From: an uncultured Candidatus Rokubacteria bacterium | GTDB taxonomy: Bacteria > Methylomirabilota > Methylomirabilia > Rokubacteriales > CSP1-6 | DNA length: 64,000 nt | Assembly: GCA_963771355.1 (NCBI GenBank) | Contig: CAVYTA010000001.1 | Location: 64,001 to 128,000 of the forward strand | Direction: 5' to 3' | Shown: positions 46,303 through 63,621 of the stretch, one piece after another | How the letters are laid out: each line of letters starts with the position of its first letter | Numbering within the stretch: the stretch's first letter is position 1 | Program-made: the position numbers and the translations under genes | Notes under the pieces: generated by a model | What the model was told of the DNA's origin: nothing | The model's input: the letters and a program-made list of their open reading frames with translations, nothing else | Database searches by the model: none

Positions 46303-46409
46303 CGGGGCGCGGGCGCCCCATTCCCGAGGCCGGCGCGGGACAGCGGGGGTAAGCGCGGGCGTGTAACTTTGCGCTTTCCTTGAGGCGTCCACCTGGCACT
46401 CCCGTTGCA
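46303..46409 (+). promoter_or_regulatory. Palindromic enhancer (46303-46320) plus sigma-54 promoter (46394-46409)
   Basis: cggggcgcgggcgcccca lies 91 bp before TGGCACTCCCGTTGCA. Confidence 0.75.
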
Positions 46410-46511
46410 CTCGCTCCAGTCCAGCTTCCGGAGCACGCGTTGAAAAGGGGAGACCGTGCGATTGAAGAGCCGCTGAGCCGAGTCGCGATTGCGGTGGGCA
46501 CAGAAGATGAG

Positions 46512-47081
46512 ATGGGCGGCACCAGCGCGTATCCGGCCGACTTGGCGCGCGAGGTGACGTGCCGAGACGGCACCCGCGTACGCCTGCGGCCCATCCGACC
46601 CGAGGATGCGCCGCGGCTCCAGGCGTTGCATGCGCGACTCAGCCGGGAGACGATCTACCAGCGCTTCTTTGGCGCCACGCCGCGACTTCCGACGCCCTGG
46701 GCCCGCTTCCTGGCCGAGGTGGACTATCGCGGGCGCCTGGCCCTGGTCCTCGAGCGGGGGCCGGCCACTGACCCCGAGCTGATCGGGGTTGGCCGCTACG
46801 AGCCGACCACCGAGCCGGGCACGGCCGAGGTCGCGTTCGTCATCGAGGACCGGTGGCAGGGCAAGGGGCTCGGCACCGTGCTCTTCACCGCGCTTCTCAC
46901 CGCCGCGCGGGAGCGCGGGATCCGCCGCTTCCGGGCCGACGTGCTCGCCGACAACCGACGCATGCTCGACCTCATCACGCGGTTCACATGCGTGGACTCA
47001 CGCGAAACCCGGGACGCGATCACGAGTCTGGTATTCTCTCTCCCGCCGGCCGGACCGACCACCCGCACGAAGGAGGCATGA
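46512..47081 (+). CDS. GNAT acetyltransferase (stand-alone Pat/PatZ-type GNAT domain)
   Basis: RLRPIRPED, LSRETIYQRFF, VDY, AEVAFVIEDRWQGKGLG, VLADNRRML. Confidence 0.88.
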   Translation: MGGTSAYPADLAREVTCRDGTRVRLRPIRPEDAPRLQALHARLSRETIYQRFFGATPRLPTPWARFLAEVDYRGRLALVLERGPATDPELIGVGRYEPTTEPGTAEVAFVIEDRWQGKGLGTVLFTALLTAARERGIRRFRADVLADNRRMLDLITRFTCVDSRETRDAITSLVFSLPPAGPTTRTKEA

Positions 47082-47959
47082 TGGCAGGGCGCACGAGCTT
47101 CGAGGTTGTGATCGGCACGGATGGCTCCGCCTCCGGGCGCGCCGCCGTGGATGCCGCTGCGCACTTTCCCTGGCCCGCCGGCGCCGGCGCGGTGCTTGTG
47201 GTGGCGAGCCGGGGCGTGCTCGAGTGGTCGCCGGCGGCACGGGCGCTGGCGCAAGGCGCGGCGCAGCGAGTGGGAGCACGCGCGCTCCGGGCGCTCCGTC
47301 GGCGGTGGCCGACAGCCCAGGCGCGGTACCCCTTGCAGTCTCCGAGCGGCGCGCTCCTCGCCGCTGCGCGGTCCGGCCGGGGTGGCGCCATCGTGGTGGG
47401 ATCCGGAGGGCGTGGCGTGCTCGGGCGGCTACTGCTCGGCAGCGTGTCGCGGCAGGTGGTCCAGGCGGCCGCTTGCCCGGTGCTCGTCGTCAAGGGCCGT
47501 TTGAGGCGGGCGCGCCGCTTCACCATCGGGGTGGACGGCTCGGCCAATTCCCGGCGCGCGGCCGCGATGGTGGCGCGCCTGTCCATCCCCCCGGGGGGGC
47601 GGGTGACCTTGGTCTCCGTGATCGAGCCGATTCGCGTTCCCTCCGGAGCCCTGATGCCCGCGCGCATCGGCGGCACGTTGCGCGCGGAGGCGGCGCGCCT
47701 CACCGCCGAGCGGCGGCGGAAGATGGAAAGGGCCCAGCGGCAGCTGCGGATCCGGCTTCGCCGGGCCGGCTGGAAGGTGCGGGAGGTGGTCCGCGTCGCC
47801 ACGCCCCTGGAGGGGTTGCTCGACGCGGCGAATGCCAGCCGGACCGATGTACTCGTCATCGGGGCCCGCGGCACCGGCGGTGTCTCGCGGCTGCTGCTGG
47901 GCAGTGTCGCGGAAGGGGCCATGACCAGGGCACCGATGTCGGTCCTGGTGGTCCGCTAG
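47078..47959 (+). CDS. Tandem universal stress protein
   Basis: Two USP domains: GTDGS...GSGGRG..LLLGSVS and GVDGS...GARGTG..LLLGSVA. Confidence 0.92.
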   Translation: MMAGRTSFEVVIGTDGSASGRAAVDAAAHFPWPAGAGAVLVVASRGVLEWSPAARALAQGAAQRVGARALRALRRRWPTAQARYPLQSPSGALLAAARSGRGGAIVVGSGGRGVLGRLLLGSVSRQVVQAAACPVLVVKGRLRRARRFTIGVDGSANSRRAAAMVARLSIPPGGRVTLVSVIEPIRVPSGALMPARIGGTLRAEAARLTAERRRKMERAQRQLRIRLRRAGWKVREVVRVATPLEGLLDAANASRTDVLVIGARGTGGVSRLLLGSVAEGAMTRAPMSVLVVR

Positions 47960-48071
47960 ACCAGCGCGGCCTCGACGCACCCCAAGTTTTAGAATTCCGT
48001 CCCCTCGCGGCACGGCTACAATCTTTGCGTGGGGGCGCCCGTGACTTGGGCGCCGGAGGGACGAGGCGGGC

Positions 48072-49478
48072 ATGAGCGACCAACGGGTGCTGATCGTCGA
48101 CGACGAGCCGGATATGGTCGAGAACTGCGCGCGTATCCTGGCGCGTGCGGGCTACCAGTGCCTGACCACGACCGATCCCGAGCACGCCCTGGGCCTCGTG
48201 GAGTCCGAGCACCCCGACCTCCTGATCACCGACCTCAAGATGCCGGGGCTCGACGGGATGGAGCTGATCCGCCGCGCCCGGCAACTGGATCCGGCGCTGC
48301 CGATCATCGTCATCACCGCCTTCGCCACCATCGAGTCGGCGGTGGCCGCCATCAAGGAAGGCGCCTTCGACTACTTGCCCAAGACTTTCTCGGTGGACCA
48401 GCTCCGGGTGGCGACCGACCGTGCCCTGGGGCACCGGACGCTGCAGCTCGAGAACCGGAACCTCCGCGCGCAGCTCCGTGGGACCTTCGGGTTCGAGAAC
48501 TTCATTGGCCGGAGCCCCGAGATGTCCGAGGTCTTCGAGCTGGTGCGCAAAGCCGGTCGCTCGGAGGCCAATATCCTGGTCCAGGGAGAGTCGGGCACGG
48601 GCAAGGAGCTGGTCGCCCGCGCCGTGCACGCCAATAGCCCCCGGGTGGCCGAGCCGTTCATCGCGGTGGACTGCGCGTCCCTGCCCGAGCACCTCCTCGA
48701 GTCTGAGCTCTTCGGGCACGAGAAGGGGGCGTTCACGGGCGCGGTGAAGAGCAAGCCCGGCCTGATGGAGACGGCCAACCGGGGCACGCTCTTCCTGGAC
48801 GAGATCGCCGAGCTGCCGGTGAGCCTCCAGGTGAAGCTGCTGCGGTCGCTCCAGGAGCGGCAGGTGCGGCGCGTCGGCGGCACCACCCTCATCCGGTGCG
48901 ACGTGCGCATCGTGTCCGCGACCAATCGGGACCTGCGCGACCTGGTGGCCAAAGGGCAGTTTCGCGAGGAGCTCTTCTATCGGGTCAACGTGATCGCGAT
49001 CCAGCTCCCGCCGCTGCGCGAGCGGGCGGGCGACGTGCCGCTGCTCGCGCAGGCCTTCCTCAAGCGCTACCGCCAGCGCGACATCCAGGGATTTGACGAG
49101 GGCGCCATGGCCGCGCTCGAGCGCTATCCGTGGCCGGGCAATGTCCGCGAGCTGCAGAACATCGTCGAGCGCGCGTGCGCGCTGGCGGAGGGCGATCGCA
49201 TTACGCGCGCGGACTTGCCGGTCTACTTGCTCGAGCGGGCCTCGCCCGCTGCCGCGTCGCGTGGCTCACCCGCCCTCCCCGCGCGCGATGGGGCGGGCGC
49301 CTCGGGGCCGCCGCCGACCCTCCGGGAGGCCAAGCAGCGCTGGCTCCAGGATCTCGAGGGCGCCTATCTTCGCGACCTCCTGGCTCAGCATGGCGGGAAT
49401 ATCTCCGCCGCGGCAAAGATCGCCGGCATCGACCGGAAGACATTTCACCGGTTGCTCAGCCGATACGGAGTCCGCTAG
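48072..49478 (+). CDS. sigma-54-dependent response regulator (NtrC/AtoC family)
   Basis: REC domain (VDDE, TDLKMPG), GESGTGKE, GAFTGA, WPGNVREL and HTH. Confidence 0.95.
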   Translation: MSDQRVLIVDDEPDMVENCARILARAGYQCLTTTDPEHALGLVESEHPDLLITDLKMPGLDGMELIRRARQLDPALPIIVITAFATIESAVAAIKEGAFDYLPKTFSVDQLRVATDRALGHRTLQLENRNLRAQLRGTFGFENFIGRSPEMSEVFELVRKAGRSEANILVQGESGTGKELVARAVHANSPRVAEPFIAVDCASLPEHLLESELFGHEKGAFTGAVKSKPGLMETANRGTLFLDEIAELPVSLQVKLLRSLQERQVRRVGGTTLIRCDVRIVSATNRDLRDLVAKGQFREELFYRVNVIAIQLPPLRERAGDVPLLAQAFLKRYRQRDIQGFDEGAMAALERYPWPGNVRELQNIVERACALAEGDRITRADLPVYLLERASPAAASRGSPALPARDGAGASGPPPTLREAKQRWLQDLEGAYLRDLLAQHGGNISAAAKIAGIDRKTFHRLLSRYGVR

Positions 49479-50164
49479 CTGCGCCTGGCGCGCTCGGAAG
49501 GTTGGACAGGCGGGCGTTCGGCGCGCCGTTTCAGGTTCCCGAACTGGCGCGTCTGCATGACCCAGTGCGCGGGCTCCCAGAAGAGCAGATCCGCGATCAC
49601 CTGCAGGAACCGCGGACGAGCGGAGGCGTAACCGCTGACCACAAGCCGCGTACGCCCTTCGGGCAATTCTTTCAGCTGGAACCCCCACAATGCATCGACA
49701 TAGAAGTGGGGCCGCGATCCTGCAGTGTCGAAGGGGCGCCCGCTGCGCAGATTGATCGGCGCTCGCAATCCAAGGAAGCGCTCCGCGTCGAGCGCCGCGA
49801 CCTCGAACCAGGCGCCGCCGCTCGGGGTTGATGCCAGGCGATCCCCCACCGACAAGTTCTGCCATTCGGGGTGGATCTGCTCGGCGCTCGGCACGCCACC
49901 GTTGTCGAGGCGGTCCCAGCTGTACCAGCCGGCCCGATCGCAGCCCATCTGCATGAGCCATGGCCACACTCGCGACGGTGGGACGTCGATCGTCACGGCC
50001 ATCGTCGCGCCGCGCCGCCCGCCGGGAATCAGATCGCCGCCGGGATACGACTGTCGCACTTCCTCGTCTGAGGCGCCCCAGCGAAGTATGCGAGGCCGTA
50101 CGGCCAGCGCGTAGACTCCTGCCGAGAGAGCGAGCATCGCGACGAGCCGACGAGCGGGTGTCAT
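49475..50164 (-). CDS. SRPBCC-like hypothetical protein
   Basis: WGASDEE, AVTIDVPPSRVWPWLMQMG.DRAGWYSWD. RBS ggagg. Confidence 0.75.
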   Translation of the reverse strand: MTPARRLVAMLALSAGVYALAVRPRILRWGASDEEVRQSYPGGDLIPGGRRGATMAVTIDVPPSRVWPWLMQMGCDRAGWYSWDRLDNGGVPSAEQIHPEWQNLSVGDRLASTPSGGAWFEVAALDAERFLGLRAPINLRSGRPFDTAGSRPHFYVDALWGFQLKELPEGRTRLVVSGYASARPRFLQVIADLLFWEPAHWVMQTRQFGNLKRRAERPPVQPSERARRS

Positions 50165-50338
50165 GGTCGCTGCCTCCTGTCCAAGAGTAGCTCCTCGCCC
50201 CGCTGCGCGGGATCGAGCTCACTGAGGGCGTCGTCCTCATCGCCAAGGTAGGCGGCCTTGCACATTTGAGAAGGATGTCCATGGTATCGGCGAGTTGGAG
50301 TTTTCGGCCCTCCGTGGCAAGCTGCCACCGGCCCCCAA

Positions 50339-50857
50339 ATGCCTAGCCCCGCGACACTCCTGTTTCGCGTTGCTCAACTCCTCTACTTCATGGCGCCAGC
50401 GTACATCGCCAACATGGCTCCACCCTTTGTCCGATACTGGAACGGATGGAATCGTCCCATCAGTCAGCGCTGGCTCGGTAACCACAAGACCGTCATGGGC
50501 TTCGGGTTTGGCGTGCTGGCGGCGGTGGTGGTCACGTTTGTCCAGTCGCGCGTTGCCTGGGAGGGAGCTCTCGTCTCCTCTGGTCACTGGACCGCGCTTG
50601 GACTGCGCTTTGGTGTCGGCGCCATGGCTGGCGACAGTGCGAAGAGTTTCGTGAAGCGGCGCGTCGGGATTGCTCCGGGCAAGTCCTGGATCCCCTGGGA
50701 CCAATTGGACTTTGTGCTGGGCGCGCTCATATTCACTTGGGGGTGCTCCCCATTGTCATGGCCCGATCTAGCAACAATTCTGCTCCTCAGCACGGGAGGG
50801 CATATTCTCATCAATCATCTCGGCTACTGGATCGGGATACGAGACGTGAAATGGTAG
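50339..50857 (+). CDS. CDP-archaeol synthase (CarS/DUF46)-like cytidylyltransferase
   Basis: PAYIANMAP, LGNHKT..G, GAMAGDSAKSFVKRR.GI.PG, DQLDF and a C-terminal GIRDVKW. Confidence 0.8.
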   Translation: MPSPATLLFRVAQLLYFMAPAYIANMAPPFVRYWNGWNRPISQRWLGNHKTVMGFGFGVLAAVVVTFVQSRVAWEGALVSSGHWTALGLRFGVGAMAGDSAKSFVKRRVGIAPGKSWIPWDQLDFVLGALIFTWGCSPLSWPDLATILLLSTGGHILINHLGYWIGIRDVKW

Positions 50858-51002
50858 TGCTGATCCTTGGGGCGAGATCAATCGCAACGACTTCGAGGTC
50901 AGAAGACGTGATCTCGCCGGGTGAGATGACCACGATGAAACCAACGACCGGGATGAAAAGGTCAAACGGTGGCGAACTCGGCGGAGCGCTGGTGGCGCTC
51001 TA

Positions 51003-51575
51003 GTGACGGCCACATCCCTTCCGCGCGATCAGACGGCGTACCGTCACCCGGTTGATGAGGTGGTGGCGACGCTCGACACGGACCCGGAGCGTCGGCTTGA
51101 GCCAGGGGGAGGCGCGCGCCCGGCTCGACCGCTACGGCAGGAACGAGCTGGACTGGGGAGAAGCCGGTCCCGGCGTGGCGGAAGTTTCTCGCCCAGTTCC
51201 ACGACGTGCTCGTCGTCTTCCTGCTCATCGCGACCGCGATCTCGGCCGGGCTGTGGCTCTACGAGCTCGGCTCCGCCTTGCCCTACGAGGCGATGGCGAT
51301 CCTTGCCGTCGTGCTGCTCAACGCGGTCATGGGCTACGTCCAGCAGTCACGAGCGGAGCAAGCGGTGGCGGCGTTACGGCAGATGTCGGCGGCGGACGCC
51401 CGTCCTGCAGGAGGATGGCGGACGCTGGACGGTGCAGGGCGACCCGACCGAGGGCGCGCTCGTCGTCGCCGCGCGGAAGGCCGGGCTGCAGGACGTGCGC
51501 TGCGCGGCGGTGGGAAGCTCGGCGCTGTGGCTCCGCGAGCTGAGCAAGATGGCATCGCGCTTCAGAGGGGCGTGA
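51003..51575 (+). pseudogene. Collapsed cation-transporting (Ca2+-type) P-type ATPase
   Basis: N-terminal GLSQGEARARLDRYGRNEL plus TM1-2 and QQSRAEQAVAAL, joined to GDPTEGAL and then a last-TM-like tail. DKTGT and TGES are missing. Confidence 0.8.
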
Positions 51576-51633
51576 GCAAGCAGCGCGCTCCACGCGGCGA
51601 GAGCTGAGAAGATGTCCCCTGGAGGAGTGAACA

Positions 51634-53997
51634 ATGGGTAGCGTGCTGTCACGAGACGAGCTCAGCGCCATCGATGCGTACTGGCGGGCGGCGAACTATC
51701 TCTCCGTCGGCCAGATCTACCTCCTGGACAACCCCCTGCTCCGGCAACCCCTCACGCCTGAGCACATCAAGCCCCGGCTGCTCGGTCACTGGGGCACGAC
51801 GCCGGGGCTGAACTTCATCTACGCGCACCTGAACCGGGCGATCAGGAAGTACGACCTCGACATGATCTACGTGTGCGGCCCCGGCCACGGCGGCCCGGGG
51901 ATGGTCGCCAACACGTATCTCGAGGGCACGTACAGCGAACTGTACGCGAGCATCTCGCAGGATGCCGAGGGGATGCGACGCCTCTTCAAGCAGTTCTCCT
52001 TCCCGGGCGGGATCCCGAGTCATGCCTCTCCCGAGACCCCCGGCTCGATCAACGAGGGCGGCGAGCTCGGCTACTCGCTGGCGCACGCCTACGGGGCTGC
52101 GTTCGACAACCCCGATCTGATCGTCGCGTGTGTGGTGGGGGACGGGGAGGCCGAGACCGGCGCTCTGGCGACGGCCTGGCACTCAAACAAGTTCCTCAAT
52201 CCCGCCACCGACGGCGCCGTCGTGCCGATCCTGCACCTGAATGGCTACAAGATCGCCGGTCCGACCGTCCTGGCCCGGATCGGCCGGCAGGAGCTCGAGA
52301 GCCTCCTGGTCGGCTACGGCCATGAGCCTCACTTCGTCGAGGGTACCGACCCCGAGGTCATGCACGAGCAGATGGCGGCGAGCTTGGACACCGTGATCGA
52401 ACGGATCCGCGCCATCCAGCAGGACGCGCGGGGCGGGGCCGGGGCCCGGCGGCCGCGCTGGCCCATGATCGTCCTGCAGACGCCCAAGGGCTGGACCGGT
52501 CCGAAGGAGGTCGACGGCAAGAAGACCGAGGGTTCCTGGCGGTCACACCAGGTGCCGCTCGCCGAAGTGGCCACGAACGAGGCGCACCGCCGGCAGCTCG
52601 AGCAGTGGATGAGGAGCTACCGGCCCGAGACCCTCTTCGACGAATCGGGCCGCCTCGTGCCGCAGATCGCCGCCCTGGCGCCGGTCGGATTACGGCGCAT
52701 GGGCGCCAATCCGCATGCCAACGGCGGCCTTCTCCTCAAGGATCTGATGATGCCGAACTTCCGCGACTTCGCGGTCGACGTCCCCAAGCCCGCAACTAAG
52801 TTCGCCGAGGCCACCCGGGTCCTCGGCGTCTTCCTGCGCGACGTCATGCGACTGAATCGCGATCGGCGAGACTTCCGTGTCTTCGGGCCCGACGAGACCG
52901 CCTCGAATCGCCTGGGCGCGCTGTTCGAGGTCACCGATCGTACGTGGCTGGCCGACCGGCGCGCGGAGGACGAGTCGCTCGGTCCCGACGGGCGCGTCAT
53001 GGAGATCCTGAGCGAGCACACCTGCCAGGGCTGGCTCGAGGGCTATCTCCTCAGCGGGCGTCACGGGTTCTTCTCGTGCTACGAGGCCTTCATCCACATC
53101 GTCGACTCGATGTTCAATCAGCACGCGAAGTGGCTGAAGGTGTGCAGGGAGATCTCCTGGCGCCGGCCGGTCGCGTCTCTCAACTACCTGCTCACGTCTC
53201 ATGTCTGGCGCCAGGACCACAACGGTTTCTCCCACCAGGATCCCGGCTTTCTTGACGTCGTCGTCAACAAGAAAGCCGACGTGATCCGCGTCTACCTGCC
53301 GCCGGACGCGAACACCCTGTTATCGGTCGCCGACCATTGCCTGCGGAGCCGGAACTACGTCAACGTCATCGTGGCCGGCAAGCAGCCCGGCCTCCAGTAC
53401 CTCGACATGGATGCCGCCATCAAACACTGCACGGCCGGCATCGGCATCTGGGAGTGGGCGAGCAACGACCGGGGGAGCGAGCCCGACGTCGTGATGGCCT
53501 GCGCGGGCGACGTGCCGACCCTTGAGACGCTCGCGGCGGTCTCGCTGCTGCGTCAGCATCTCCCGACGCTTAGGGTCCGGGTGATCAATGTCGTCAATCT
53601 CATGAAGCTCCAGCCGACGAGGGAGCACCCGCACGGGCTCTCCGATCGGGAGTTCGACACCCTGTTCACGACGGACAAGCCGATCATCTTCGCGTTCCAC
53701 GGCTACCCGTGGCTGATCCATCGTCTCACCTACCGGCGGACCAACCACCAGAACCTCCACGTGCGAGGCTACAAGGAGGAGGGCACCACGACGACGCCCT
53801 TCGACATGGTCGTGCTGAACGAGCTCGACCGGTTCCATCTGGTGGTGGACGTGATCGACCGCGTGCCGGGGCTGGGGACGACGGCCGCCTACGCCAAGCA
53901 GGCGATCCGCGACAAGCTCATCGAGCACCGGCAGTACATCGAGCGATACGGCGAGGACATGCCAGAGGTCCGCGAGTGGACGTGGAGCGGAGAATAA
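51634..53997 (+). CDS. xfp: Phosphoketolase
   Basis: [42 protein letters not shown]. Confidence 0.97.
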
Positions 53998-54010
53998 GGG
54001 ATGCCAGACG

Positions 54011-54661
54011 TCATGATGGAGGGTCGTCGACACCGCCGGGCGCCTTGTTCAGGCGCAACAGCCCCTCGAACCGTACTGACCGCGTCAGCCACGACGTGCT
54101 CGCACTCACCAGCAGCGCGACCACCGTCCCCACGGTGGCCGCGAGCATGTCGTGCTGGGCGTCCCAGGGATCCCCTTGCGCCCCGACGAAGGCGATGCCT
54201 AGATCGGGTCGCGCGAGTTGAGCCACCCCTGCTTCGATGATCTCCCAGGCACCGGCGAGGGCGAGCTGGGTCATGAAGGCCAGATAGAAGAGGAGCAGGC
54301 CCCGCGCGCCAGTCCGCCGACGGAACACTTCCAGCAGAGGATACGTGAGGCAGAGACCGAAGGCGAAGTGGACGACGCGGTCGAAGTCATTGCGCTCGAG
54401 CCCGAATGCCGTCTGGAGCCAATGGCCGAGGGGTACCTGCGAGTAGGTATAGTGGGCGCCCACGGTGTGCAAGACCAGAAAGCCGGCGATGAGCGCGTAT
54501 GAGACCGACGACAGGGGAAAAGCCCGCCTGCCGAAGACGAGGCCGCCGACAAAGGTCATGGGCAGGATGCTGGCCAGTACCCAGTTTCCTGGGTCCAACG
54601 GGGCGCGGCCCAGGGCCGCCCAGAAGACGAGATACCCTCCCAGCAACATGTTCGGACTCAT
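54011..54661 (-). CDS. DUF2238 (YjdF-like) membrane protein, copy 2
   Basis: HTVGAHYTYSQVP, RNDFDRVVHF, WEIIE, GAQGDPWDAQHDM. Confidence 0.85.
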   Translation of the reverse strand: MSPNMLLGGYLVFWAALGRAPLDPGNWVLASILPMTFVGGLVFGRRAFPLSSVSYALIAGFLVLHTVGAHYTYSQVPLGHWLQTAFGLERNDFDRVVHFAFGLCLTYPLLEVFRRRTGARGLLLFYLAFMTQLALAGAWEIIEAGVAQLARPDLGIAFVGAQGDPWDAQHDMLAATVGTVVALLVSASTSWLTRSVRFEGLLRLNKAPGGVDDPPS

Positions 54662-54669
54662 GGAGGATT

Positions 54670-55336
54670 CTATCCAGCAGGCGACGACCCCGCAACCGAT
54701 CGTGCTTCCGGCTTCCCCACCGCTGGAAGGCGGCCGCGATCGCGGTCGACAGAAGCGCGCCCAGGGCGGCCAGCGACATGTCCTTGTGCGCGTCCCACGG
54801 GTCCCCTTGCGCCCCGAGATAGGCGATGCCAAGCTCTCCGCCAAAGACCATGGCGGCGCCCCACTCGATCAGCTCGTACGTCGCCGAGCTCGACATAGTC
54901 AGGTCCATCGGGAGGAAATAGCCCCAGAAACCCCGAAGCGCCGTGGCGCGGACGAACGCCTCCCTGACCGGTTGGGTCAGGAGCAGGCCGTAGATGAAGT
55001 GCACGATGCGGTCGAAGTTATTCCGCTGCCAGCCGAGCGCCCCGTTGAGGCTCTTGCCGGTGATCGCGGTGAACCACGCGTCGTAAGGGACCTCGGAGTA
55101 CGTGTAGTGCGCTCCGACGGCGTGGAACGTGAGAAAGAGGAAGATCAGCGTATAGGACAGCCGAGACAGTGGGACGCGCCGTCGAGTAAGCGCGAGGAGG
55201 GCTACGGCGAGAGGGTGAGGACGTTTTCGAGGGCCCAATCCGCCCGGTGGCGGGGCGCGATGGCGAGGCCGAGCCAGACGAGCGCGAAGAGCGCCGCGAG
55301 GAGCGCGACATAGCGGCGCTCCGCGACGCCACCCAT
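54670..55336 (-). CDS. DUF2238 (YjdF-like) membrane protein, copy 1, apparent 1-nt frameshifts near 55213 and 54717
   Basis: DWALEN, HAVGAHYTYSEVP, RNNFDRIVHF, YELIEW, GAQGDPWDAHKDM. Confidence 0.8.
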
Positions 55337-55379
55337 GACAGGCATGAGAGCGCCAACGTACTCCCGGGCGAGCGAGACG

Positions 55380-55538: not shown

Positions 55539-55657
55539 GCGATACTGAACTCCCGGAAGCGCCAGTAGCGCAACCCCAAGGTCAGCGCGATGAGATCCGT
55601 CTTGTCGTCCATCTCCGCCAGCGCGACCACCACGAGCGAACTGATCAGGGGCATCAT
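55517..55657 (-). pseudogene. N-terminal fragment of a TMEM165/GDT1 (UPF0016) protein
   Basis: SLVVVALAEMDDKTDLIAL resembles the ExGDKT motif. Truncated after ~30 aa. Confidence 0.6.
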
Positions 55658-56955
55658 CGCTGCGCTCGCATCAGCCATCCTGCCGCCAGGCCGGTTGCAC
55701 ACAGCAACACTCCGAGGCCGATCGCCAGCGGCTCCAGCTGCGTCATCATGAAGGCCACCGACCCGAGCCCGAGCACCGGCAACACGGGAATGCCGCCCAC
55801 GGTCCCCGCGACCGCGAACGGGCGTGGCAGCTCCGGGCGCGTGCGCCGGAGAAGGATTACCGTCCCGTTCACCGCGAGAAACACGACATAGACCGCGAAA
55901 TCCGTCACCGCGGCGACCACGGCAAAATCGCCGAACAAGGCAAACGTTCCCGCGACCAGCGCCACCGCCACGATCGCGCGAATCGGGGTGCGCCGACGCT
56001 GATGGACGAACGCGAAGGAGCGTGGCATCGCCCCGGCCTTCGCCATCCCGTACATGACCCGCGACGCGGCGGTCACCACGAGGAGTGTGGTGTTGGTCGT
56101 CGTCATGACGGCGATCGCCGCCACGACGGTGGCACCTCGGTCTCCCAGCACGTGGGCCATCACATCGGCCAGCGGGCGCGGCGAAGCGGCGAGCGTGTCG
56201 GCGCCGAGCACGCTCACGGCGGCGACCGCCACGGCGATGTAGAGCCCGGTCGACAGCCCGAGCGCGAGCAGCAAGGCGCGGGGCACGGTCCGCGTCGGAT
56301 CGCGTGTTTCTTCTGCGAGCGTGATGACTTCATCGAACCCGATGAAGGCGAAGAACACGAGTGCCGCCGCCCCAAGCACACCTCCGACGCCATGCCCGGA
56401 CAGGAGATCTACGTCTCCGACATGGGGTACCCCTATGGCGATGACGAGCACCAGCCCGCCGACCTGGACCGCGCTCAAGGCGACCGTGAGCCGGGCGGAG
56501 TGCTTGACCCCCACCATCGCGATGGTGGACACCACGGTCAGAAGACCGAGGGCTGTCGCCCGCGCATCGATGTCCAGGAAGTAGCCCGCGTAACGCGCAA
56601 ACCCGATCGACACCGTAGCTGCAGCCACAACCAAGCCCATGATCATCGTCCAGCCAACGACGAACGCGACCCACTCCGGCATCGCCCGGCGCGTGTACTC
56701 GTATTCGCCCGCGGCGCTGGGGAACATCGAGCTGAGTTCGGCATAGCTGAGACCAGTCAGAGCGCTCAACACGGCAGCGACGAGAAACGCCAGCCAGACG
56801 AGCGGGCCCGCGTGTGCGGTGGCGGCGCCAAGCAAAACGTAGATCCCCGCCCCGATGATGATTCCCACGCCGCCGGCGGTGACTTCCATGAGGCCGAGCA
56901 CACGACGGAGCGACGTGGCAGGGTCGATGGGGTTCGGGCCGGCGCCGTTGGCCAT
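55654..56955 (-). CDS. APC family amino acid permease
   Basis: GIIIGAGIY, SYAELSSMFP.AAGEY, FFAFIGFD, AEETRDP. About 12 TM. Confidence 0.92.
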   Translation of the reverse strand: MANGAGPNPIDPATSLRRVLGLMEVTAGGVGIIIGAGIYVLLGAATAHAGPLVWLAFLVAAVLSALTGLSYAELSSMFPSAAGEYEYTRRAMPEWVAFVVGWTMIMGLVVAAATVSIGFARYAGYFLDIDARATALGLLTVVSTIAMVGVKHSARLTVALSAVQVGGLVLVIAIGVPHVGDVDLLSGHGVGGVLGAAALVFFAFIGFDEVITLAEETRDPTRTVPRALLLALGLSTGLYIAVAVAAVSVLGADTLAASPRPLADVMAHVLGDRGATVVAAIAVMTTTNTTLLVVTAASRVMYGMAKAGAMPRSFAFVHQRRRTPIRAIVAVALVAGTFALFGDFAVVAAVTDFAVYVVFLAVNGTVILLRRTRPELPRPFAVAGTVGGIPVLPVLGLGSVAFMMTQLEPLAIGLGVLLCATGLAAGWLMRAQR

Positions 56956-57031
56956 GAGCGTTGGTTCACACGATGCAGAGGCTGCCGGCGTAGATCAGCA
57001 CGTCGAAATCGTTCGTTTCATCGCGATCATC

Positions 57032-57340
57032 TTACCCGGCGAGATCACGTTTTCTGGCCTCGAACTCGTCGCGGTTGATCTCGCCCCGGGCATACCGCTC
57101 TCGCAAGATCTCGAGCGCCGTGTCCTTCCCCGGCGCTCGGCCCTGTGCGACGAGCCAGCGAATGCCGAGCACGGTGCCGGTGATCAAGATCGCCCAGAAT
57201 AACAGCATCATACCGAGACCCCAGACTCCCCACATCGGATGCATCCCCCAGTGCCACTCATAGACCCGCTCCTGCGCCCATGCCGAGCCCGGCACGAGAA
57301 GTATCGCCAGCAGCGGCAGCCGGATTCCTAGACGTTCCAT
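57032..57340 (-). CDS. SHOCT-domain membrane protein
   Basis: Signal peptide, HWGMHPMWG, a TM segment and ALEILRERYARGEINRDEF. Confidence 0.85.
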   Translation of the reverse strand: MERLGIRLPLLAILLVPGSAWAQERVYEWHWGMHPMWGVWGLGMMLLFWAILITGTVLGIRWLVAQGRAPGKDTALEILRERYARGEINRDEFEARKRDLAG

Positions 57341-57468
57341 GTATCCTCCGCCTCTCCTACCAGCGCCAGGTCCTTGCTCGGCAGCGGCCGCCGGCGAGTC
57401 ACTGCGCCGTTGTGCGGCATCAACGGCCCGGCGACTTCATGTGCTGTCTCTCTGAAAAAAACCGTCAG

Positions 57469-57484
57469 AGCAAGGGGGGTGCCA
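57469..57484 (-). promoter_or_regulatory. sigma-54 promoter (leftward)
   Basis: Minus strand TGGCACCCCCCTTGCT (GG-N10-GC). Confidence 0.72.
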
Positions 57485-57692
57485 TCACGAGGCCGGCGCC
57501 AGTGCCCTCGTAAGTGACCGAAACAGCGCGCGAGGGCCGGGACCCCTCTGCGCTCGCATTCTGCTCCGGCCTGCGCACATCGTCCGGCACTGCCCCACGT
57601 GGGACGATGCCTTCCCGACCCCAATGACAGTGCGCGCCAACCCGAACACGGCGCGGGCATGAAGCTCGACGGAGCCGGTAATCCGATTCGCG

Positions 57693-57810
57693 CGGGGCAC
57701 GGCTGCCCCGATAGGGGCTCGCCCCGCCTCACCTCGCGCCCCGCCTTAGCGCCGAGAAACTCTGAAGGGCCTGGAATCACTGCAGAACCCTTCCTGGCAT
57801 TACCATTGCT
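57693..57810 (+). promoter_or_regulatory. Palindromic enhancer (57693-57710) plus sigma-54 promoter (57795-57810)
   Basis: cggggcacggctgccccg lies 102 bp before TGGCATTACCATTGCT. Confidence 0.78.
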
Positions 57811-57875
57811 GTTCTTGTCTGGTGCCTGATCGGGCGAGAGAACCGAATCGCCTGCCCCTCGGACAAGGAGACTTC

Positions 57876-58664
57876 ATGTCGCTGAAGGACCTGCTCGTCA
57901 TCGCGGACAATGACCCGACCTACGCGGCCCGCCTCGACATCGCGCTCGCGCTGGCTGCCGAGCATCACGCACACCTGACAGGGCTGTACGTGATGCCGCC
58001 GCCCCTGAAGCCGATCCTCGAGCTTGAGGACGCGGCCCGACGGGCGGCGGCGGTCTTCGCCGAGCGTGCGGGACGGACCACGGTATCCACGGATTGGCGG
58101 GTCGCGGAGGGCGACATCGTGCGTGTGGCGAGCGAGCAGGCCCGCTATGCGGACCTGACCGTGCTCCCCCAGGGCATCGACCTCGGGTTCGCCTCCGCCG
58201 ACCTCGCGCGGCTGCCCCAGGAGCTGGCCCTCGGAGTGGGCCGTCCCGTGCTGGTCATCCCGCGCCATGGCTCGTTCCCCAAGGTGGGCGGCCGGGTGCT
58301 GGTGGCCTGGAACGGGAGCCGCGAGGCCACGCGGGCGGTCCACGACGCTCTGCCCTTGTTGCGCCGGGCCGAGCAGGTCACCGTTCTGTCGATCAATCCG
58401 GACGCCGCTGCGGAGCGCCGCCTGCCTGGTGCGCATGTCTCCCGGCACCTCACCCGTCATGGAGTGACCGTGCAGGCGACGCCGACCATCACCGGTGCCG
58501 ATGTCGCCGTCGGCGACCTCCTGCTCTCCTATGTCGCCGATCACGACATCGACCTCGTCGTGATGGGCGCCTACGGGCACACCCGACTGCGCGAGATGGT
58601 CCTCGGCGGGGCCACCCGGACGCTGCTCCGGCACATGACGGTGCCGGTGCTGATGTCGCATTGA
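57876..58664 (+). CDS. Universal stress protein (tandem type)
   Basis: GRPVLVIP, VAWNGSREATRA, DLVVMGAYGHTRLRE..GGAT. Confidence 0.93.
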   Translation: MSLKDLLVIADNDPTYAARLDIALALAAEHHAHLTGLYVMPPPLKPILELEDAARRAAAVFAERAGRTTVSTDWRVAEGDIVRVASEQARYADLTVLPQGIDLGFASADLARLPQELALGVGRPVLVIPRHGSFPKVGGRVLVAWNGSREATRAVHDALPLLRRAEQVTVLSINPDAAAERRLPGAHVSRHLTRHGVTVQATPTITGADVAVGDLLLSYVADHDIDLVVMGAYGHTRLREMVLGGATRTLLRHMTVPVLMSH

Positions 58665-58675
58665 GGGCGCGCCCG

Positions 58676-58920
58676 ATGGACGGAAGAGTGTTCTATCGCA
58701 TCGTCGTCGCGGTAGATTTCTCGCCGCCTTCCGAAGAGGCGTGGGATCATGCCAGGCGGCTGGCGGCCCTCTCGGACGCGGAGTTGATTCTTACCCACGT
58801 CGTGGCCGCGGCCCCTGGGTTTGTGGGCGGATCGCTCACGCGCACGCGGATCGCCGAGGTCCAGGCCTCGCTGCGCCGCTGGGCGGACGACAAGCTGACA
58901 AAGTGGACGGCCGGTGCTGT
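58676..58920 (+). pseudogene. Truncated universal stress protein
   Basis: RIVVAVDFSPPSEEA...LILTHVV is a USP N-terminus. The C-terminal G..G..GSV motif is absent and the sequence runs into the next promoter. Confidence 0.7.
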
Positions 58921-58953
58921 CGGTCCGCGCACTATCATGATGGGATGGTCACC

Positions 58954-58969
58954 CGGCACCTCGGTTGCA
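58954..58969 (+). promoter_or_regulatory. sigma-54 promoter
   Basis: CGGCACCTCGGTTGCA (GG-N10-GC), about 100 nt before ATG 59071. Confidence 0.65.
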
Positions 58970-59070
58970 CTTAGTATTCGTAGAGGTTGGGGGCCTGACG
59001 GTCGCTGCACCGGCTGGGACCCCCGAACGCGGGTGGATGATTGGCCGCCACCGGGCGCGGGAGAGTCATC

Positions 59071-59535
59071 ATGTTGGTCCAAGAGCTGAGCAGGCAGGAG
59101 AGTCTAGACCTGTTGGCGCACAGGCGTCTGGGGAGATTGGCGTGTGCCCAGGGGGCGCAACCCTATGTCGTGCCCGTCTACTTCGTTTATCACGAGCGAT
59201 CGCTCTATAGCTTTGCCACGGTCGGGCAAAAGATCGAGTGGATGCGCGCCAACCCGCTGGTCTGCGTCGAAACGGACGAGGTGGTGAGCCCGCAGCAGTG
59301 GGTGAGCGTCATCGTGTTCGGTCGCTACGAGGAGCTGCCGGATACGCCACAATGGCAGAGCGCACGCACACTCGCCCACACGCTGCTGAAGCAGACCGCC
59401 ATGTGGTGGGAGCCGGCCTACGTGAAGACGATTCACTGCGGTGCACAGCGTCCGCTGATACCGGTCTTCTACCGCATTCACATCGATCAAATTACCGGCC
59501 ACCGCGCCACCCCGGAGCCGGGCGGCATCGTCTGA
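59071..59535 (+). CDS. Pyridoxamine 5'-phosphate oxidase-like (NimA-like) flavin-binding protein
   Basis: GRLACA..QPYVVP, GQKIEWMRANPLVC, WVSVIVFG, ITG. Confidence 0.88.
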   Translation: MLVQELSRQESLDLLAHRRLGRLACAQGAQPYVVPVYFVYHERSLYSFATVGQKIEWMRANPLVCVETDEVVSPQQWVSVIVFGRYEELPDTPQWQSARTLAHTLLKQTAMWWEPAYVKTIHCGAQRPLIPVFYRIHIDQITGHRATPEPGGIV

Positions 59536-59586
59536 CGCTCGGTAGTCGGTGCTCGACTCGGGCGAGGCCGGCGGCTCCGCGCCGGA

Positions 59587-59691
59587 TGGGGCGGCGATGT
59601 CCCACCGGGGTGCCGGCTTCCCATTCCCCCTCGCGCTCTGCGAAGTAACCACGTGTGTTCGTTCACCTCTTCGGGTGGCATTTCCGTTGCA
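59587..59691 (+). promoter_or_regulatory. Palindromic enhancer (59587-59604) plus sigma-54 promoter (59676-59691)
   Basis: tggggcggcgatgtccca lies 89 bp before TGGCATTTCCGTTGCA. Confidence 0.78.
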
Positions 59692-59745
59692 CTCTTTCGT
59701 CGCCATGACCGGGCGACCAAGTTCAGGAAGCCGAGGAGGCCACCA

Positions 59746-60192
59746 ATGAGCCGAATTCGACGCGTGCTGCACCCCACCGATTTCTCCGGCGCCTCCGCCG
59801 CCGCCTTCGCGCGGGCCGTCGAAACGGCCAGGTCCAGCCGGGCCGAACTCTTGGTTGTCAATGTCATCCCGCCCACCTTTCTGCCGATCGGCAATGGATA
59901 TATCTCGCCTACGGTGTACGAGGACATGGAAGCCTCCGCGCGCGCCTATGCTCAGAAGCACCTGACGGCGTTGGTCGCCAAGGCAAAGAAAGCGGGCGTT
60001 CGCGCGAAGGGGCTGCTCATGGAGGGCCCGCCGCACGAGCGCATCGTGCAGGCGGCCCGCCGCAAACGGGCCGACCTCGTGGTGATCGGCACACACGGGC
60101 GGACCGGTCTTGCCAAGTTCTTTCTCGGGAGCGTTGCAAGCCGGGTGCTCGCCATCTCGCCGTGTCCTGTCCTGACGGTGCGCGGCAAATAG
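59746..60192 (+). CDS. Universal stress protein
   Basis: LHPTDFS, ADLVVIGTHGRTG...LGSVA, CPVLTV. RBS gaggagg. Confidence 0.95.
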   Translation: MSRIRRVLHPTDFSGASAAAFARAVETARSSRAELLVVNVIPPTFLPIGNGYISPTVYEDMEASARAYAQKHLTALVAKAKKAGVRAKGLLMEGPPHERIVQAARRKRADLVVIGTHGRTGLAKFFLGSVASRVLAISPCPVLTVRGK

Positions 60193-60241
60193 TCCCAAAC
60201 GACCCGGTACCGGGGTTTGGCTCCGGAGGAGGGAACGCACG

Positions 60242-60847
60242 ATGAACACACTCGATGACGTGCGCGAAGTACGAGAAGCTTCCACCGCTTCGCTGGTGGC
60301 GGTGATCGCGATCATGATCGCCAGCGCGCTCGGCTTCGTGCTGCTCACGGCGCCGCTCGCGAAGCTCATGGGTTCCGGCGGGGGCGCGCTGCCGGCGGCG
60401 ATTCACGGTCTCATGGCGTTCCTGTACCTCTTCGTCGGGACCATTGGCCTGTACCTCGGTTGGCGTCTCCTGACCGGACATATCCGGGCATTCGCCGACC
60501 TCCAGCTGCTGGCGGTGGTGGCCGCCACCTTCTCGTTTCTCGCCATCTGCTTCGGGAACTGGCTTTACATCTACTATCGGGCCCCGGTGTCGGATAGCCC
60601 ACGGTCCTACTTCGTCAAGAACATGCCCGAGGTGCACCGGATCTTCTTCGAGTTCAAGGAATTCAGCGCGTTGTTCACACTGCCGCTGGCGGTCTGCGCT
60701 GCGTTCATCCTGTGGCGATACGGAATCCAGACGCTCGAGCGCCCCTGGTTGCGCTACAGCGTGGCCGTGCTCATGGGGCTGGCCTTCTTCTATCTCGTGG
60801 TCGCCTTCGGTCTGGGCGCCGCGGTTACCAAGCTCCGACCTGCCTGA
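60242..60847 (+). CDS. Hypothetical membrane protein (~5 TM)
   Basis: RBS gaggg. Hydrophobic segments with AIHG, GNWLYIYYR and VHRIFFEFKE. Confidence 0.75.
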   Translation: MNTLDDVREVREASTASLVAVIAIMIASALGFVLLTAPLAKLMGSGGGALPAAIHGLMAFLYLFVGTIGLYLGWRLLTGHIRAFADLQLLAVVAATFSFLAICFGNWLYIYYRAPVSDSPRSYFVKNMPEVHRIFFEFKEFSALFTLPLAVCAAFILWRYGIQTLERPWLRYSVAVLMGLAFFYLVVAFGLGAAVTKLRPA

Positions 60848-60862
60848 CGGGGGAGGACGAAT

Positions 60863-61279
60863 ATGAGCCCGACAACGAGCACTGCCAAGCCGGACGAGAA
60901 GAACGTCGAAGTGGCCTGGACTCCGTCGACGCGCGAGCGCATCCCGGGAGGGATCGCGGTGGGGGCGTTGATGGCGGCCATGGTGGGGATGCTGACCCTC
61001 GCGGTGGTGAACGTTTTCACCGCTGGGTCGAAGGCCTTCAACGTCTGGGTCCATGAGGTGGGCAAGCTCTGGATGCCGGGCGCCGCAGGCATCGGGCCCT
61101 ACTCGGGCAAGGAGACGCTGGCGCTGGTGGCCTGGCTGGGCACCTGGCTGATCCTGCACTTCGCCCTGCGGAACAAAGATCTGGAGATCTCGCGCTGGTT
61201 CATCGTCTTCCTGGTGGGCGTGGGAATCGCCACCACTTTGATCTGGCCGCCGGTGTTCGAGTACCTGGCCGGACATTAA
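60863..61279 (+). CDS. Hypothetical membrane protein (3 TM)
   Basis: RBS ggagg. GIGPYSGKE loop and C-terminal WPPVF. Confidence 0.75.
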   Translation: MSPTTSTAKPDEKNVEVAWTPSTRERIPGGIAVGALMAAMVGMLTLAVVNVFTAGSKAFNVWVHEVGKLWMPGAAGIGPYSGKETLALVAWLGTWLILHFALRNKDLEISRWFIVFLVGVGIATTLIWPPVFEYLAGH

Positions 61280-61296
61280 CGAAGGGGAGGTATGTC

Positions 61297-61617
61297 ATGA
61301 AGCGTGTGATCGTGGGCCGTGCGATGGTTGGGCTTCTGGGGCTCGGGCTCGTCCTTGGTCCGACGCTGCCCGCGCGCTCCGGGCCCGGAATGGACGACGA
61401 GCGGATGGCCCAGATGATGAAGATGATGGGCGATATGCAAGAGCAGATGAAGGGGATGCGGCAGCAGATGCAGGGGATGGGCCCGATGCATGGGCGGATG
61501 GAGCACATGATGGGAGAGATGGGGCGGATGCGCGCCTTGATGGAGCAGCATCGCGGCCAGATGATGCAGCATTGCGCCGAGGGGAAACCCGCCCAGCCCC
61601 CCGTGCCGCACAAGTAG
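61297..61617 (+). CDS. Exported methionine-rich protein
   Basis: Signal-like N-terminus followed by 20 Met in 60 residues. Confidence 0.75.
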   Translation: MKRVIVGRAMVGLLGLGLVLGPTLPARSGPGMDDERMAQMMKMMGDMQEQMKGMRQQMQGMGPMHGRMEHMMGEMGRMRALMEQHRGQMMQHCAEGKPAQPPVPHK

Positions 61618-61636
61618 CCTGGCGCCGGAGGCGGAC

Positions 61637-61888
61637 ATGATCGATCGGGATGCGCTGATCACCTACCTGGCCGTAGTCCTCCGTGGCCCCGTCGAGGTCC
61701 TGACGCTTCGCCCGTTCAAGGACGCTCCCGCCGAAGCGGAAGACGCGCTGGTGATCGCGCATCCGCGCTGGTACCCGACGCTGACCGCCGGGACGCGACG
61801 AGCGCTCATCGGCTTCGCGCAGCGGCTCATGGCGAACGGCCCCGTCGATCCCGCGCGCGTCCTGGAGCTGCTCGGAGGCCGGTCGTGA
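61637..61888 (+). pseudogene. Probable internally deleted phosphotransferase (APH-like) gene
   Basis: RBS ggagg. The N-terminus (YL..VLRGPVEVL) is joined to a C-terminus (LVIAHPRWYP.L...RRAL..F) that I recall from APH-family proteins encoded before APS-kinase-like genes. No kinase core is present. Confidence 0.45.
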
Positions 61889-63036
61889 GCTGGGCGATCT
61901 GGATTACCGGCCTTCCCGGCAGCGGCAAGTCGGCCATCGCCCGTGCCGCGGCGGCCGAGCTGAGGCGGCTCGGCCGGCCGGTGGCGCTGCTCGAGCTCGA
62001 CGAGATCAGGAAGAGCATCACGCCGACGCCGCGTTACACCGACGCCGAACGCGACGTCGTGTACCGGGCGCTAACCTATCTGGCGGCCATGCTGACGGAG
62101 GTGAAGGTGCCGGTGTTCATCGACGCGACTGCCCACCGGCGCGCCTGGCGCGACCTGGCTCGGGCGGTGATCCCGCACTTCGCTGAGGTCCAGCTCGTCT
62201 GTCCCCTGGAAGTCTGCCAGGAACGGGAGCGGACCCGGCCCCTCGGCCACGCCCCGCGGGACATGTATCGCCAGGCGGGATCGCCCCGCGCCACCGTGCC
62301 CGGCGTCAACGTGCCCTATGAAGCGGCGGCGTCGCCGGAGGTGGTGATCGACACCGGAGGGGAGAGCGTGATGGAGGGCGCGGCGCGGGTTGTTCAGCTC
62401 GCGCAAGAGCTCGCCGCCCGGGCCGCCGGGGGCGCGGTCCCGCCCGCCGCCGAGCCCGCGGAACCCGGCTGGGCCATCTGGATCACCGGCCGGCCGGGAA
62501 GCGGAAAGAGCACGCTGGCGACGCGCGCGGCGGCTGCCCTCGCGGCGCGCGGCGTGCATGCGCGCGTGCTCAATCATGCCAGCGTCCGCAGCTTCCTGCT
62601 CGGCGATGGTGCGATCGGGGAGGGGGAGCAGGACTTCATCTACCGCGTCCTCGCCTACGCGGCGAAGCTCCTGACCGAGGCCGGCATGTCGGTGATCGTC
62701 GACGCCACCGCGTCACGCCGCGTCTGGCGCGAGGCGGCGCGCTCCCTCATCCCGTGCTTTGCGGAAGTCCAGCTCCTCTGCCCCGCCGAGATCTGTCTCG
62801 AGCGCGAGCGCGCCGTCCACTGGGGGCTCGCCTCCGGTCTCGATGTCTCTCGCGGCGGCACCGCGAGGGCCCCCGACATCGTGCTGGACTACGAGGAGTC
62901 GTCGCGCCCGGATCTCGCGCTCCGGACGGATGTGCACGACATCTGGACCGAAGTGGAGCAAGTCCTCATTCTCGTCCAGCGTCTGAGAAGCGCGCTGGCC
63001 AATCGGCCCGAAACACCCGAAAGGGGAATGCCATGA
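61885..63036 (+). CDS. Tandem adenylyl-sulfate-kinase-like (CysC-like) protein, two P-loop domains
   Basis: WAIWITGLPGSGKS and WAIWITGRPGSGKS, each followed by DATA..R.WR and FAEVQL.CP.E.C.ERE. Confidence 0.85.
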   Translation: MSWAIWITGLPGSGKSAIARAAAAELRRLGRPVALLELDEIRKSITPTPRYTDAERDVVYRALTYLAAMLTEVKVPVFIDATAHRRAWRDLARAVIPHFAEVQLVCPLEVCQERERTRPLGHAPRDMYRQAGSPRATVPGVNVPYEAAASPEVVIDTGGESVMEGAARVVQLAQELAARAAGGAVPPAAEPAEPGWAIWITGRPGSGKSTLATRAAAALAARGVHARVLNHASVRSFLLGDGAIGEGEQDFIYRVLAYAAKLLTEAGMSVIVDATASRRVWREAARSLIPCFAEVQLLCPAEICLERERAVHWGLASGLDVSRGGTARAPDIVLDYEESSRPDLALRTDVHDIWTEVEQVLILVQRLRSALANRPETPERGMP

Positions 63037-63464
63037 TCGTCAGAGAGTTGATGACCGGAGCGGTGATCACCGCGCCGCCGTGGATGCCCATCCTCGAGGC
63101 GCGCAATCTCATGATCAAGGAGCGTATCCGCCACCTGCCGGTGAGGGCCCCCGGCGGCGAGCTGCTCGGCATGATCACCGATCGGGACATCCGGTTGAAC
63201 TTGCCGTCCCAGGCTACCAGCCTCTCGGTGTGGGAGATCAAACACCTGCTGTCGAAGCTTACCGTCGACGAGGTCATGACGCAGGCGGTGATCACCGTGG
63301 GGCCGGACCGCCCCGCCCGCGAGGCCGCCCGGCTGATGATGGAGCACCAGATCGGGGCGTTGCCCGTCGAGGACGGCGGGTGTCTGGTCGGCATCGTCAC
63401 CGAGACCGACGTGCTGCGGGCCTTCATCCGCATGGATACGCCCCTGGCAAGCCGGCGCAGCTGA
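63033..63464 (+). CDS. CBS domain protein (AcuB-like)
   Basis: IRHLPV..LLGMITDRDI and IGALPV..LVGIVTETD. Confidence 0.92.
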   Translation: MIVRELMTGAVITAPPWMPILEARNLMIKERIRHLPVRAPGGELLGMITDRDIRLNLPSQATSLSVWEIKHLLSKLTVDEVMTQAVITVGPDRPAREAARLMMEHQIGALPVEDGGCLVGIVTETDVLRAFIRMDTPLASRRS

Positions 63465-63514
63465 TGCGCCGCGCGTGTTAGCTGGAGATCGACGAGGTCG
63501 CCGCCCGCCTAGCT

Positions 63515-63621
63515 CGGGGCATCCATGTCCCATTTCCGGGTCTCGACGCAACAGCACCATGATGACGCATACGCCGAATCTCTTGGATTCACGGCATTCC
63601 TGGAGTGGCACCTCGATTGCT
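63515..63621 (+). promoter_or_regulatory. Palindromic enhancer (63515-63532) plus sigma-54 promoter (63606-63621)
   Basis: cggggcatccatgtccca lies 91 bp before TGGCACCTCGATTGCT. Confidence 0.78.

Follow-up and report, generated by a model that had tools for sequence, protein, structure and literature searches.

The 64,000-nucleotide stretch analysed here (the window; positions 64001-128000 of contig CAVYTA010000001.1, called C1 below) comes from the genome of an uncultured Candidatus Rokubacteria bacterium (5.5 Mb, 70% GC), and carries repeated copies of an 18-bp palindromic box in front of sigma-54 promoters. The box is almost certainly a real activator site. Judging from its distribution among related genomes, its binder is very probably the NtrC-family regulator encoded at 48072-49478 of the window. 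Together with a histidine kinase whose PAS domains are predicted to bind heme, the regulator and the box would, on balance, make up a low-oxygen survival programme. In the host genome the regulon is local and confined to one island.

A sigma-54 enhancer box confined to one island

Four exact 18-mers begin at 46303, 57693, 59587 and 63515, and the sigma-54 motifs paired with them (TGGC-N7-TTGC type, at 46394, 57795, 59676 and 63606) begin 91, 102, 89 and 91 bp further on. These positions and spacings, reported in the initial annotation of the window, all proved exact when re-checked. The weaker copy that it placed at 57600 is also present; the divergent minus-strand promoter (57484) follows it at a distance of 133 bp, and a three-mismatch partner of this copy is found 20 bp away. 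The boxes and promoters of the window are listed below, with box scores in bits.

46303-46320, enhancer box, 91 bp before its sigma-54 motif, 17.9 bits
46394-46409, plus strand, sigma-54 -24/-12 motif preceding the GNAT and tandem universal stress protein (Usp) genes and possibly, via read-through, the regulator gene
57469-57484, minus strand, sigma-54 motif of the divergent promoter
57600-57617, weaker box with one mismatch, 133 bp before the minus-strand promoter, 10.6 bits
57693-57710, enhancer box, 102 bp before its sigma-54 motif, 16.4 bits
57795-57810, plus strand, sigma-54 motif
59587-59604, enhancer box, 89 bp before its sigma-54 motif, 20.7 bits
59606-59623, tandem second box at +19, two mismatches
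59676-59691, plus strand, sigma-54 motif preceding genes for a Usp, two membrane proteins, a small protein, an adenosine phosphosulfate (APS) kinase-like protein and a CBS protein
63515-63532, enhancer box, 91 bp before its sigma-54 motif, 18.2 bits
63606-63621, plus strand, sigma-54 motif preceding a BirA-like ligase gene and then, beyond the window end, the PAS-PAS histidine kinase gene

The genome contains 21 matches to the symmetric motif YGGGRC-N6-GYCCCR. For five of these a sigma-54 motif follows at 89-102 bp; all five are inside C1:110-133 kb, the fifth being 4.5 kb beyond the window end; the expectation by chance is about 0.03 exact matches across the 102 strict promoter windows. Around the remaining 16, a stretch of about 300 bp is free of sigma-54 motifs. 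A fifth exact match in the window, at 63298, is a chance hit, since it lies within the CBS-domain gene and no sigma-54 motif is found within 300 bp of it. In a broader form, YG(G/A)G(G/A)C-N6-G(C/T)C(C/T)CR, the box is found upstream of nine sigma-54 motifs in one island.

A weight matrix trained solely on the sites of relatives was applied to the 102 strict sigma-54 candidates of the host genome. It gives at least 10 bits for nine of the 11 candidates in the island of about 25 kb (C1:108-136 kb), and 8 bits or more for none of the 91 candidates elsewhere and for 0.3% of random positions. The island limits were set after the data had been seen; the top nine ranks are independent of them. It had been proposed that a genome-wide scan for the box together with -24/-12 motifs would define a regulon across the genome. 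Such a scan was run and shows enrichment at island promoters over random positions. The motif does define a regulon; its dispersal over the genome is rejected, as the nine promoters fall within about 25 kb and no boxed promoter lies outside the island.

The box is retained in related genomes, which are kin and not independent of one another. The composite of box and promoter gives 69 matches in 34 of 151 genomes of the class, compared with a single match for the reversed pattern; with an N8 spacer it is absent from all 151. In loci fetched by regulator homology alone, the N6 dyad is present at 24 of 59 promoters (0.6 in shuffles), and other spacers are seen zero to three times. A further 20 held-out loci gave the N6 dyad at 21 of 49 promoters, with other spacers at zero or one. 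Relatives of 61-63% GC keep the box as TGGGRCA-N4-TGTCTCA at -116/-117.

The geometry was studied in 118 boxed promoters with 159 boxes, a set partly selected by pattern, which limits the range of distances but not their phase. Distances from box to promoter peak at 68-73, 78-81, 88-92, 98-104 and 109-112 bp and so recur every 10.2-10.5 bp. Of the 42 box pairs, 36 are spaced 19 or 20 bp. Dyads that are often paired, helically phased and about 70-130 bp upstream of -24/-12 motifs are the arrangement expected for the NtrC family. With what we take to be the consensus of integration host factor (IHF), a site with at most two mismatches lies between box and promoter in 45 of the 118 (nine in shuffles), mostly at one position; five genes of the HU/IHF family are present in the host genome.

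It could be argued that the boxes are chance GC-rich palindromes or terminator-like hairpins that happen to lie near sigma-54 motifs. The GC content of the genome and the 16 exact matches without a promoter, like the intragenic one in the window, point that way, but the strict N6 spacer, the helical phasing, the confinement to the island and the retention of the box in relatives of lower GC content do not. Given the spacer, shuffle, held-out and background controls, which refute it, this explanation is extremely improbable.

The probable regulator behind the box

About 24 sigma-54 activators are encoded in the host genome. Two of them, both encoded in the window, were compared as candidate binders.

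48072-49478, plus strand, NtrC-family regulator with receiver, AAA+ domain with GAFTGA, and Fis-type helix-turn-helix (HTH) domain with a DRKTFHRL helix; the likely box binder
24529-25533, minus strand, receiver-less sigma-54 activator, outside the system; rejected as binder

The receiver, AAA+ and HTH domains of the 48072 protein are joined in one chain, as is characteristic of the NtrC family. Its orthologs (E up to 1e-135) are found in 70 of the 151 class genomes, and the composite motif is present in 30 of these 70 compared with 4 of the 81 without an ortholog. Within the family to which the window belongs, where kinship also applies, the counts are 23 of 36 and 2 of 38. The four motif-positive genomes that lack an ortholog match comprise one with a split ortholog, one in which the gene is cut at a contig end inside a boxed cluster, and two fragmented assemblies. 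For the 24529 protein, close orthologs were defined by at least 69% identity, the cut-off being placed at the gap between 69% and 65%; they show no association with the motif (3 of 12 genomes with and 31 of 139 without), and this activator is rejected as the box binder because it does not co-occur with the motif. The comparative evidence thus supports the earlier proposal that the box is the binding site of one enhancer-binding protein, and favours the 48072 protein over the 24529 protein for that role.

The genomic arrangement is consistent with this assignment. A boxed promoter is present in 42 of 55 regulator loci, often as the next promoter downstream of the regulator gene, and one order seen repeatedly among relatives runs kinase, regulator, boxed promoter, Usp, Usp, BirA-like, Usp, APS kinase-like, CBS, receiver. 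The helix DRKT(F/L/I/V/Y)HRL is constant among the orthologs, and among the C-termini listed for the 24 activators of the host a DRKT helix is found in the 48072 protein alone. Activators beside similar boxes in some other phyla belong to a different clade yet share DR(K/R)TLF, which fits the DRKT helix reading the box. Named matches to the HTH region of the 48072 protein are almost all from Rokubacteria, Methylomirabilota or NC10.

A different protein might nevertheless bind the box: the 24529 activator, one of the other 22 activators, or a factor that is not a sigma-54 activator. The motif-positive genomes without an ortholog match, and the restriction of the co-occurrence comparison to two of the 24 activators, leave room for such a protein. 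Against it stand the lack of association of the 24529 orthologs, the fact that two of the four exceptions do carry an ortholog, split in one and cut by a contig end in the other, and the regulator gene that usually abuts a boxed promoter, which make another binder improbable.

The kinase and the likely signal

A PAS-PAS histidine kinase is encoded just past the window end (C1:128511-130094), 15 kb from the regulator gene and in the same island. In relatives one kinase family is encoded near the regulator, with kinase matches in 41 of the 55 regulator loci, which links the kinase to the regulator. The best structural-sequence matches of its two PAS domains are the heme PAS domains of FixL and of FG214, a heme-PAS protein (PDB 10JX; bioRxiv 10.64898/2026.03.15.711900). 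The proximal His of both proteins is kept in both kinase domains (H99 and H227), and H156, H159 and M172 of FG214 align with H227, H230 and M243; this heme-type signature is unique in the host genome. Across the 55 regulator loci the common kinase core carries the heme motif in 17 (excluding off-frame pattern matches in L211 and L214), a membrane module in 20, both in one and neither in 19. The membrane sensor module is about 185 aa long, with the motif LQSYYYG, and forms the kinase N-terminus (L033, L034, L036-L040, L043, L045, L047); none of the three examples scanned gave a Pfam match at E 1e-6.

Together with the kinase PAS domains, the targets suggest oxygen or redox as the signal, which we consider likely. 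The ccoN gene is present in 6 of the 151 class genomes, and all six carry a 48072-type regulator. It lies directly behind a boxed promoter in three of the six, two of which came to light on testing the prediction, made from the first, that any genome with ccoN would have it boxed. In two others it is the last gene of a Usp/CBS run that has a sigma-54 motif upstream, strongly boxed in one case and weakly (3 bits) in the other, and in the sixth only 466 bp of upstream contig is available, with no promoter in it. One locus in a relative has a boxed promoter ahead of a pyruvate:ferredoxin oxidoreductase gene.

Control of the FNR/Anr/FixK type was considered and is rejected, as no such boxes are found at the island promoters or before the six ccoN genes. 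The one FNR-type TTGA-N6-TCAA match in the island is inside the cytochrome c gene.

The proposed sequence of events is as follows. Low oxygen would be signalled by the kinase through its predicted heme-binding PAS domains, and the kinase would phosphorylate the 48072 regulator. Dimers of the regulator would then occupy a single box, or two boxes separated by about two helical turns, oligomerise and contact the sigma-54 polymerase through an IHF-type bend, presumably switching on Usp, CBS and ribosome-hibernation-type genes. Positive feedback would follow, since the kinase gene, and perhaps the regulator gene, stand behind boxed promoters in the host genome.

The same regulator and box could instead serve a signal other than oxygen, such as general energy, stationary-phase or envelope stress, or the level of nitric oxide, carbon monoxide or heme; the heme-type PAS would then be one input among several that can be exchanged. 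Such a signal is favoured by the membrane-sensor kinases that take the place of the heme type in 20 of the 55 loci, by a distal pocket unlike that of FixL, and by the precedent of DVU3305, a Desulfovibrio sigma-54 regulator of UspA genes that responds to pH, heat and stationary phase (PMC3333781). The boxed promoters directly before ccoN and before the pyruvate:ferredoxin oxidoreductase gene argue the other way, as does the resemblance of the target set to the low-oxygen sets of NmpR and lxa, discussed below. A signal other than oxygen thus appears unlikely, if well short of negligible, and a low-oxygen role for the box regulon remains the probable one from the genes that it precedes.

Several observations weigh against a low-oxygen programme run by this regulator, box and kinase. 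In the kinase PAS domains a Leu aligns with the distal Arg of FixL, which we take to be R220 in B. japonicum, and a Gly with the distal His of FG214; because these residues differ from both proteins, heme is only predicted. The membrane sensor that replaces the PAS domains in 20 of 55 loci lacks the heme motif, and ccoN was not found in the host genome itself. Two promoter motifs of the island, at 44450 and 58954, have no box. No exact composite match is found in 40 of the 70 genomes with an ortholog, and in one family, f6, the exact motif is absent from all 20 genomes although 13 carry the ortholog. P values from the comparisons overstate the case, since the genomes are related by descent. 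Finally, the same box precedes unrelated genes in other phyla, so that the box alone says nothing on the signal.

In the f6 loci L060-L064 the regulator is kept at 52-53% identity with the same helix, and L063 alone shows a near-match to the box; in this family the regulon may be reduced or have drifted.

Comparison with known systems

The closest parallel is NmpRSTU of Myxococcus xanthus, in which the NtrC-family regulator NmpR binds GCGCA-N5-TGCGC at sites 14-15 nt apart and has among its targets CBS, Usp and cbb3 oxidase genes together with those of its own signalling system (PMC11841059). An NtrC-family regulator with paired dyads upstream of sigma-54 promoters is common to both systems, as are CBS and Usp targets, with cbb3 oxidase here in relatives only; a heme-containing kinase there has its counterpart in the predicted heme-PAS kinase here. 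The sites differ: the box reads GGRCA/G-N4-T/CGYCC, with sites 1-2 nt apart, and the only NmpR-type GCGCA-N5-TGCGC in the island is at the end of a CBS gene. So does the sensor, as NmpU is a kinase with a protoglobin sensor that acts in a multi-step relay with the hybrid kinase NmpS, in contrast with the one PAS-PAS kinase found here. No protoglobin match was obtained among the island and window proteins scanned with domain profiles, a search that did not extend to the rest of the genome.

In trees made by a quick method, regulators beside protoglobin kinases form a separate supported clade, with the helix S(V/Q/P)RK(V/I)QY as opposed to DRKT(F/L/I/V)HRL here. The NmpR-like rows come from genomes related to Myxococcota and were chosen for their box and for synteny with protoglobin; the M. 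xanthus protein is not among them. With this choice of rows, a joint clade was not rejected by an approximately unbiased (AU) test (p=0.08). On the tree topology and the helices, the regulator clade is likely to be independent of NmpR.

TspR of Acidithiobacillus caldus, a sigma-54 two-component regulator of sox targets, has the site TGTCCCAAATGGGACA (review, PMC6335251). It has the same half-site, TGGGACA/TGTCCCA, but facing the opposite way (TGTCCCA-N2-TGGGACA), an arrangement that is seen here where two tandem boxes meet; the published site may thus be flanked on either side by the true TspR dyads. As the primary site of the present system the outward TspR-type dyad is rejected, being weaker than the inward one: it is found in only 5+5 of 59 promoters, compared with 24 for the inward N6 dyad.

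The kinase resembles FixL and FG214 in its PAS fold with a proximal His. It scores 205 bits against a FixL family cut-off of 850 and differs in the distal residues, and the output of the system is a sigma-54 activator and not FixJ, which sets it apart from FixL/FixJ/FixK. The mycobacterial DosR regulon also clusters Usp-rich survival genes behind one upstream dyad, but DosR is LuxR-type and not a sigma-54 activator. The Burkholderia lxa locus shares this clustering of Usp-rich survival genes with one upstream dyad, but uses an FNR/Anr-type TGA-N6-TCA motif and no sigma-54 activator (PMC3721108). DVU3305 of Desulfovibrio vulgaris is also a sigma-54 response regulator, and controls UspA-domain genes as well as its own operon, but its site, GTTGC-N5-GCAAC, differs (PMC3333781). 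The box matches none of the validated D. vulgaris motifs in Table S7 of that paper, and matches to the motif strings in the supplements of PMC3333781 and PMC4641369 are only primers and one unrelated site. No description of the box or the system was found in the literature listings searched, and written forms of the motif matched no paper; content shown only as logos, behind subscription or in bioRxiv supplements was beyond reach.

It is conceivable, and we put it forward tentatively, that a sigma-54 circuit of independent origin runs the low-oxygen or dormancy programme of Rokubacteria and their relatives. Such a circuit would have a regulator clade unrelated to NmpR, FixJ/FixK and DosR, an 18-bp box peculiar to it, and a single kinase core that has exchanged an FG214-like heme PAS and a membrane sensor as its input.

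Gene content of the island

The further genes of the window that belong to boxed units are the following.

46512-47081, plus strand, GNAT acetyltransferase (PF13302, PF00583)
47078-47959, plus strand, tandem-domain universal stress protein (PF00582 twice)
55654-56955, minus strand, APC-family amino-acid permease, downstream of the boxed minus-strand promoter
57032-57340, minus strand, SHOCT-domain membrane protein
57876-58664, plus strand, universal stress protein
59746-60192, plus strand, universal stress protein
61885-63036, plus strand, tandem APS-kinase-like P-loop protein
63033-63464, plus strand, CBS-pair protein, holding the chance motif match at 63298

Within the window the boxed units are GNAT-Usp-(regulator), SHOCT-permease, Usp, Usp-membrane proteins-APS kinase-like-CBS, and BirA-like-kinase. 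Beyond its end they continue with a metallo-beta-lactamase/rhodanese fusion, a Usp run, CBS-BON, and a unit that starts with a small basic protein and goes on to baeRF10, cytochrome c and an ADP-forming acyl-CoA synthetase. A single-domain receiver is encoded at C1:132057. The island holds 10 of the 12 Usp-domain matches of the host genome, and its baeRF10 protein has sub-threshold matches to ribosome hibernation factors of the Rv2629 and MSMEG_1130 types. No sigma-54 motif is present at the phosphoketolase gene or its neighbours (49475-55300), and these genes cannot be placed in the regulon.

The two ends of the island, at 44499-44717 in the window and at C1:135086-135304, encode paralogous, highly basic proteins of 72 aa that are 69% identical. 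Each gene stands behind a sigma-54 motif, neither product has an NCBIfam match, and homologs occur in four related island loci (L051, L052, L053, L212); they could be nucleoid- or ribosome-binding dormancy proteins. The region 60242-61279 encodes two adjoining membrane proteins without a Pfam or NCBIfam match, a pair that recurs in islands L042, L046, L066 and L205. A partial Usp frame at 58676-58969 runs into the unboxed sigma-54 motif at 58954, upstream of a PNPOx-like gene, and looks like a rearrangement scar.

Significance and related boxes in other lineages

To our knowledge Rokubacteria are uncultured. Gene regulation in the phylum is not treated in the top literature matches on it, and PMC12316311 does not mention the phylum. 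The regulator, the box and the sensor would offer a direct handle on the sensing of oxygen loss in Rokubacteria, and the box assigns unannotated genes, such as those of the small basic protein and the two membrane proteins, to the response. If the independent circuit put forward above is real, the box is a sequence tag for the genes that these uncultured soil bacteria use against oxygen loss, including cbb3 oxidase in those that possess it. The surprise is moderate, because the mechanism is textbook sigma-54 activation; of greater interest are the exchange of sensors and what looks like convergence with NmpR.

Related boxes are found elsewhere. In Verrucomicrobiota and some other soil lineages, YGGGACG-N4-(C/T)GTCCCR lies 99-106 bp before the sigma-54 motifs of MacB/HlyD-type exporters (L077, L085, L087, L090, L094, L100, L103, L107, L146 and similar loci), and probably belongs to a separate regulon with a different activator. 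The same pattern is seen in Achromobacter (L073, L096) 92 bp before the glnA sigma-54 motif, where NtrC sites are expected. In Desulfobacterales-type loci (L075, L099, L122, L142, L081) the box stands upstream of genes for acyl-CoA synthetase or transport and beside an activator of a different clade with a DR(K/R)TLFRK helix, and this pairing suggests a recognition code between helix and box.

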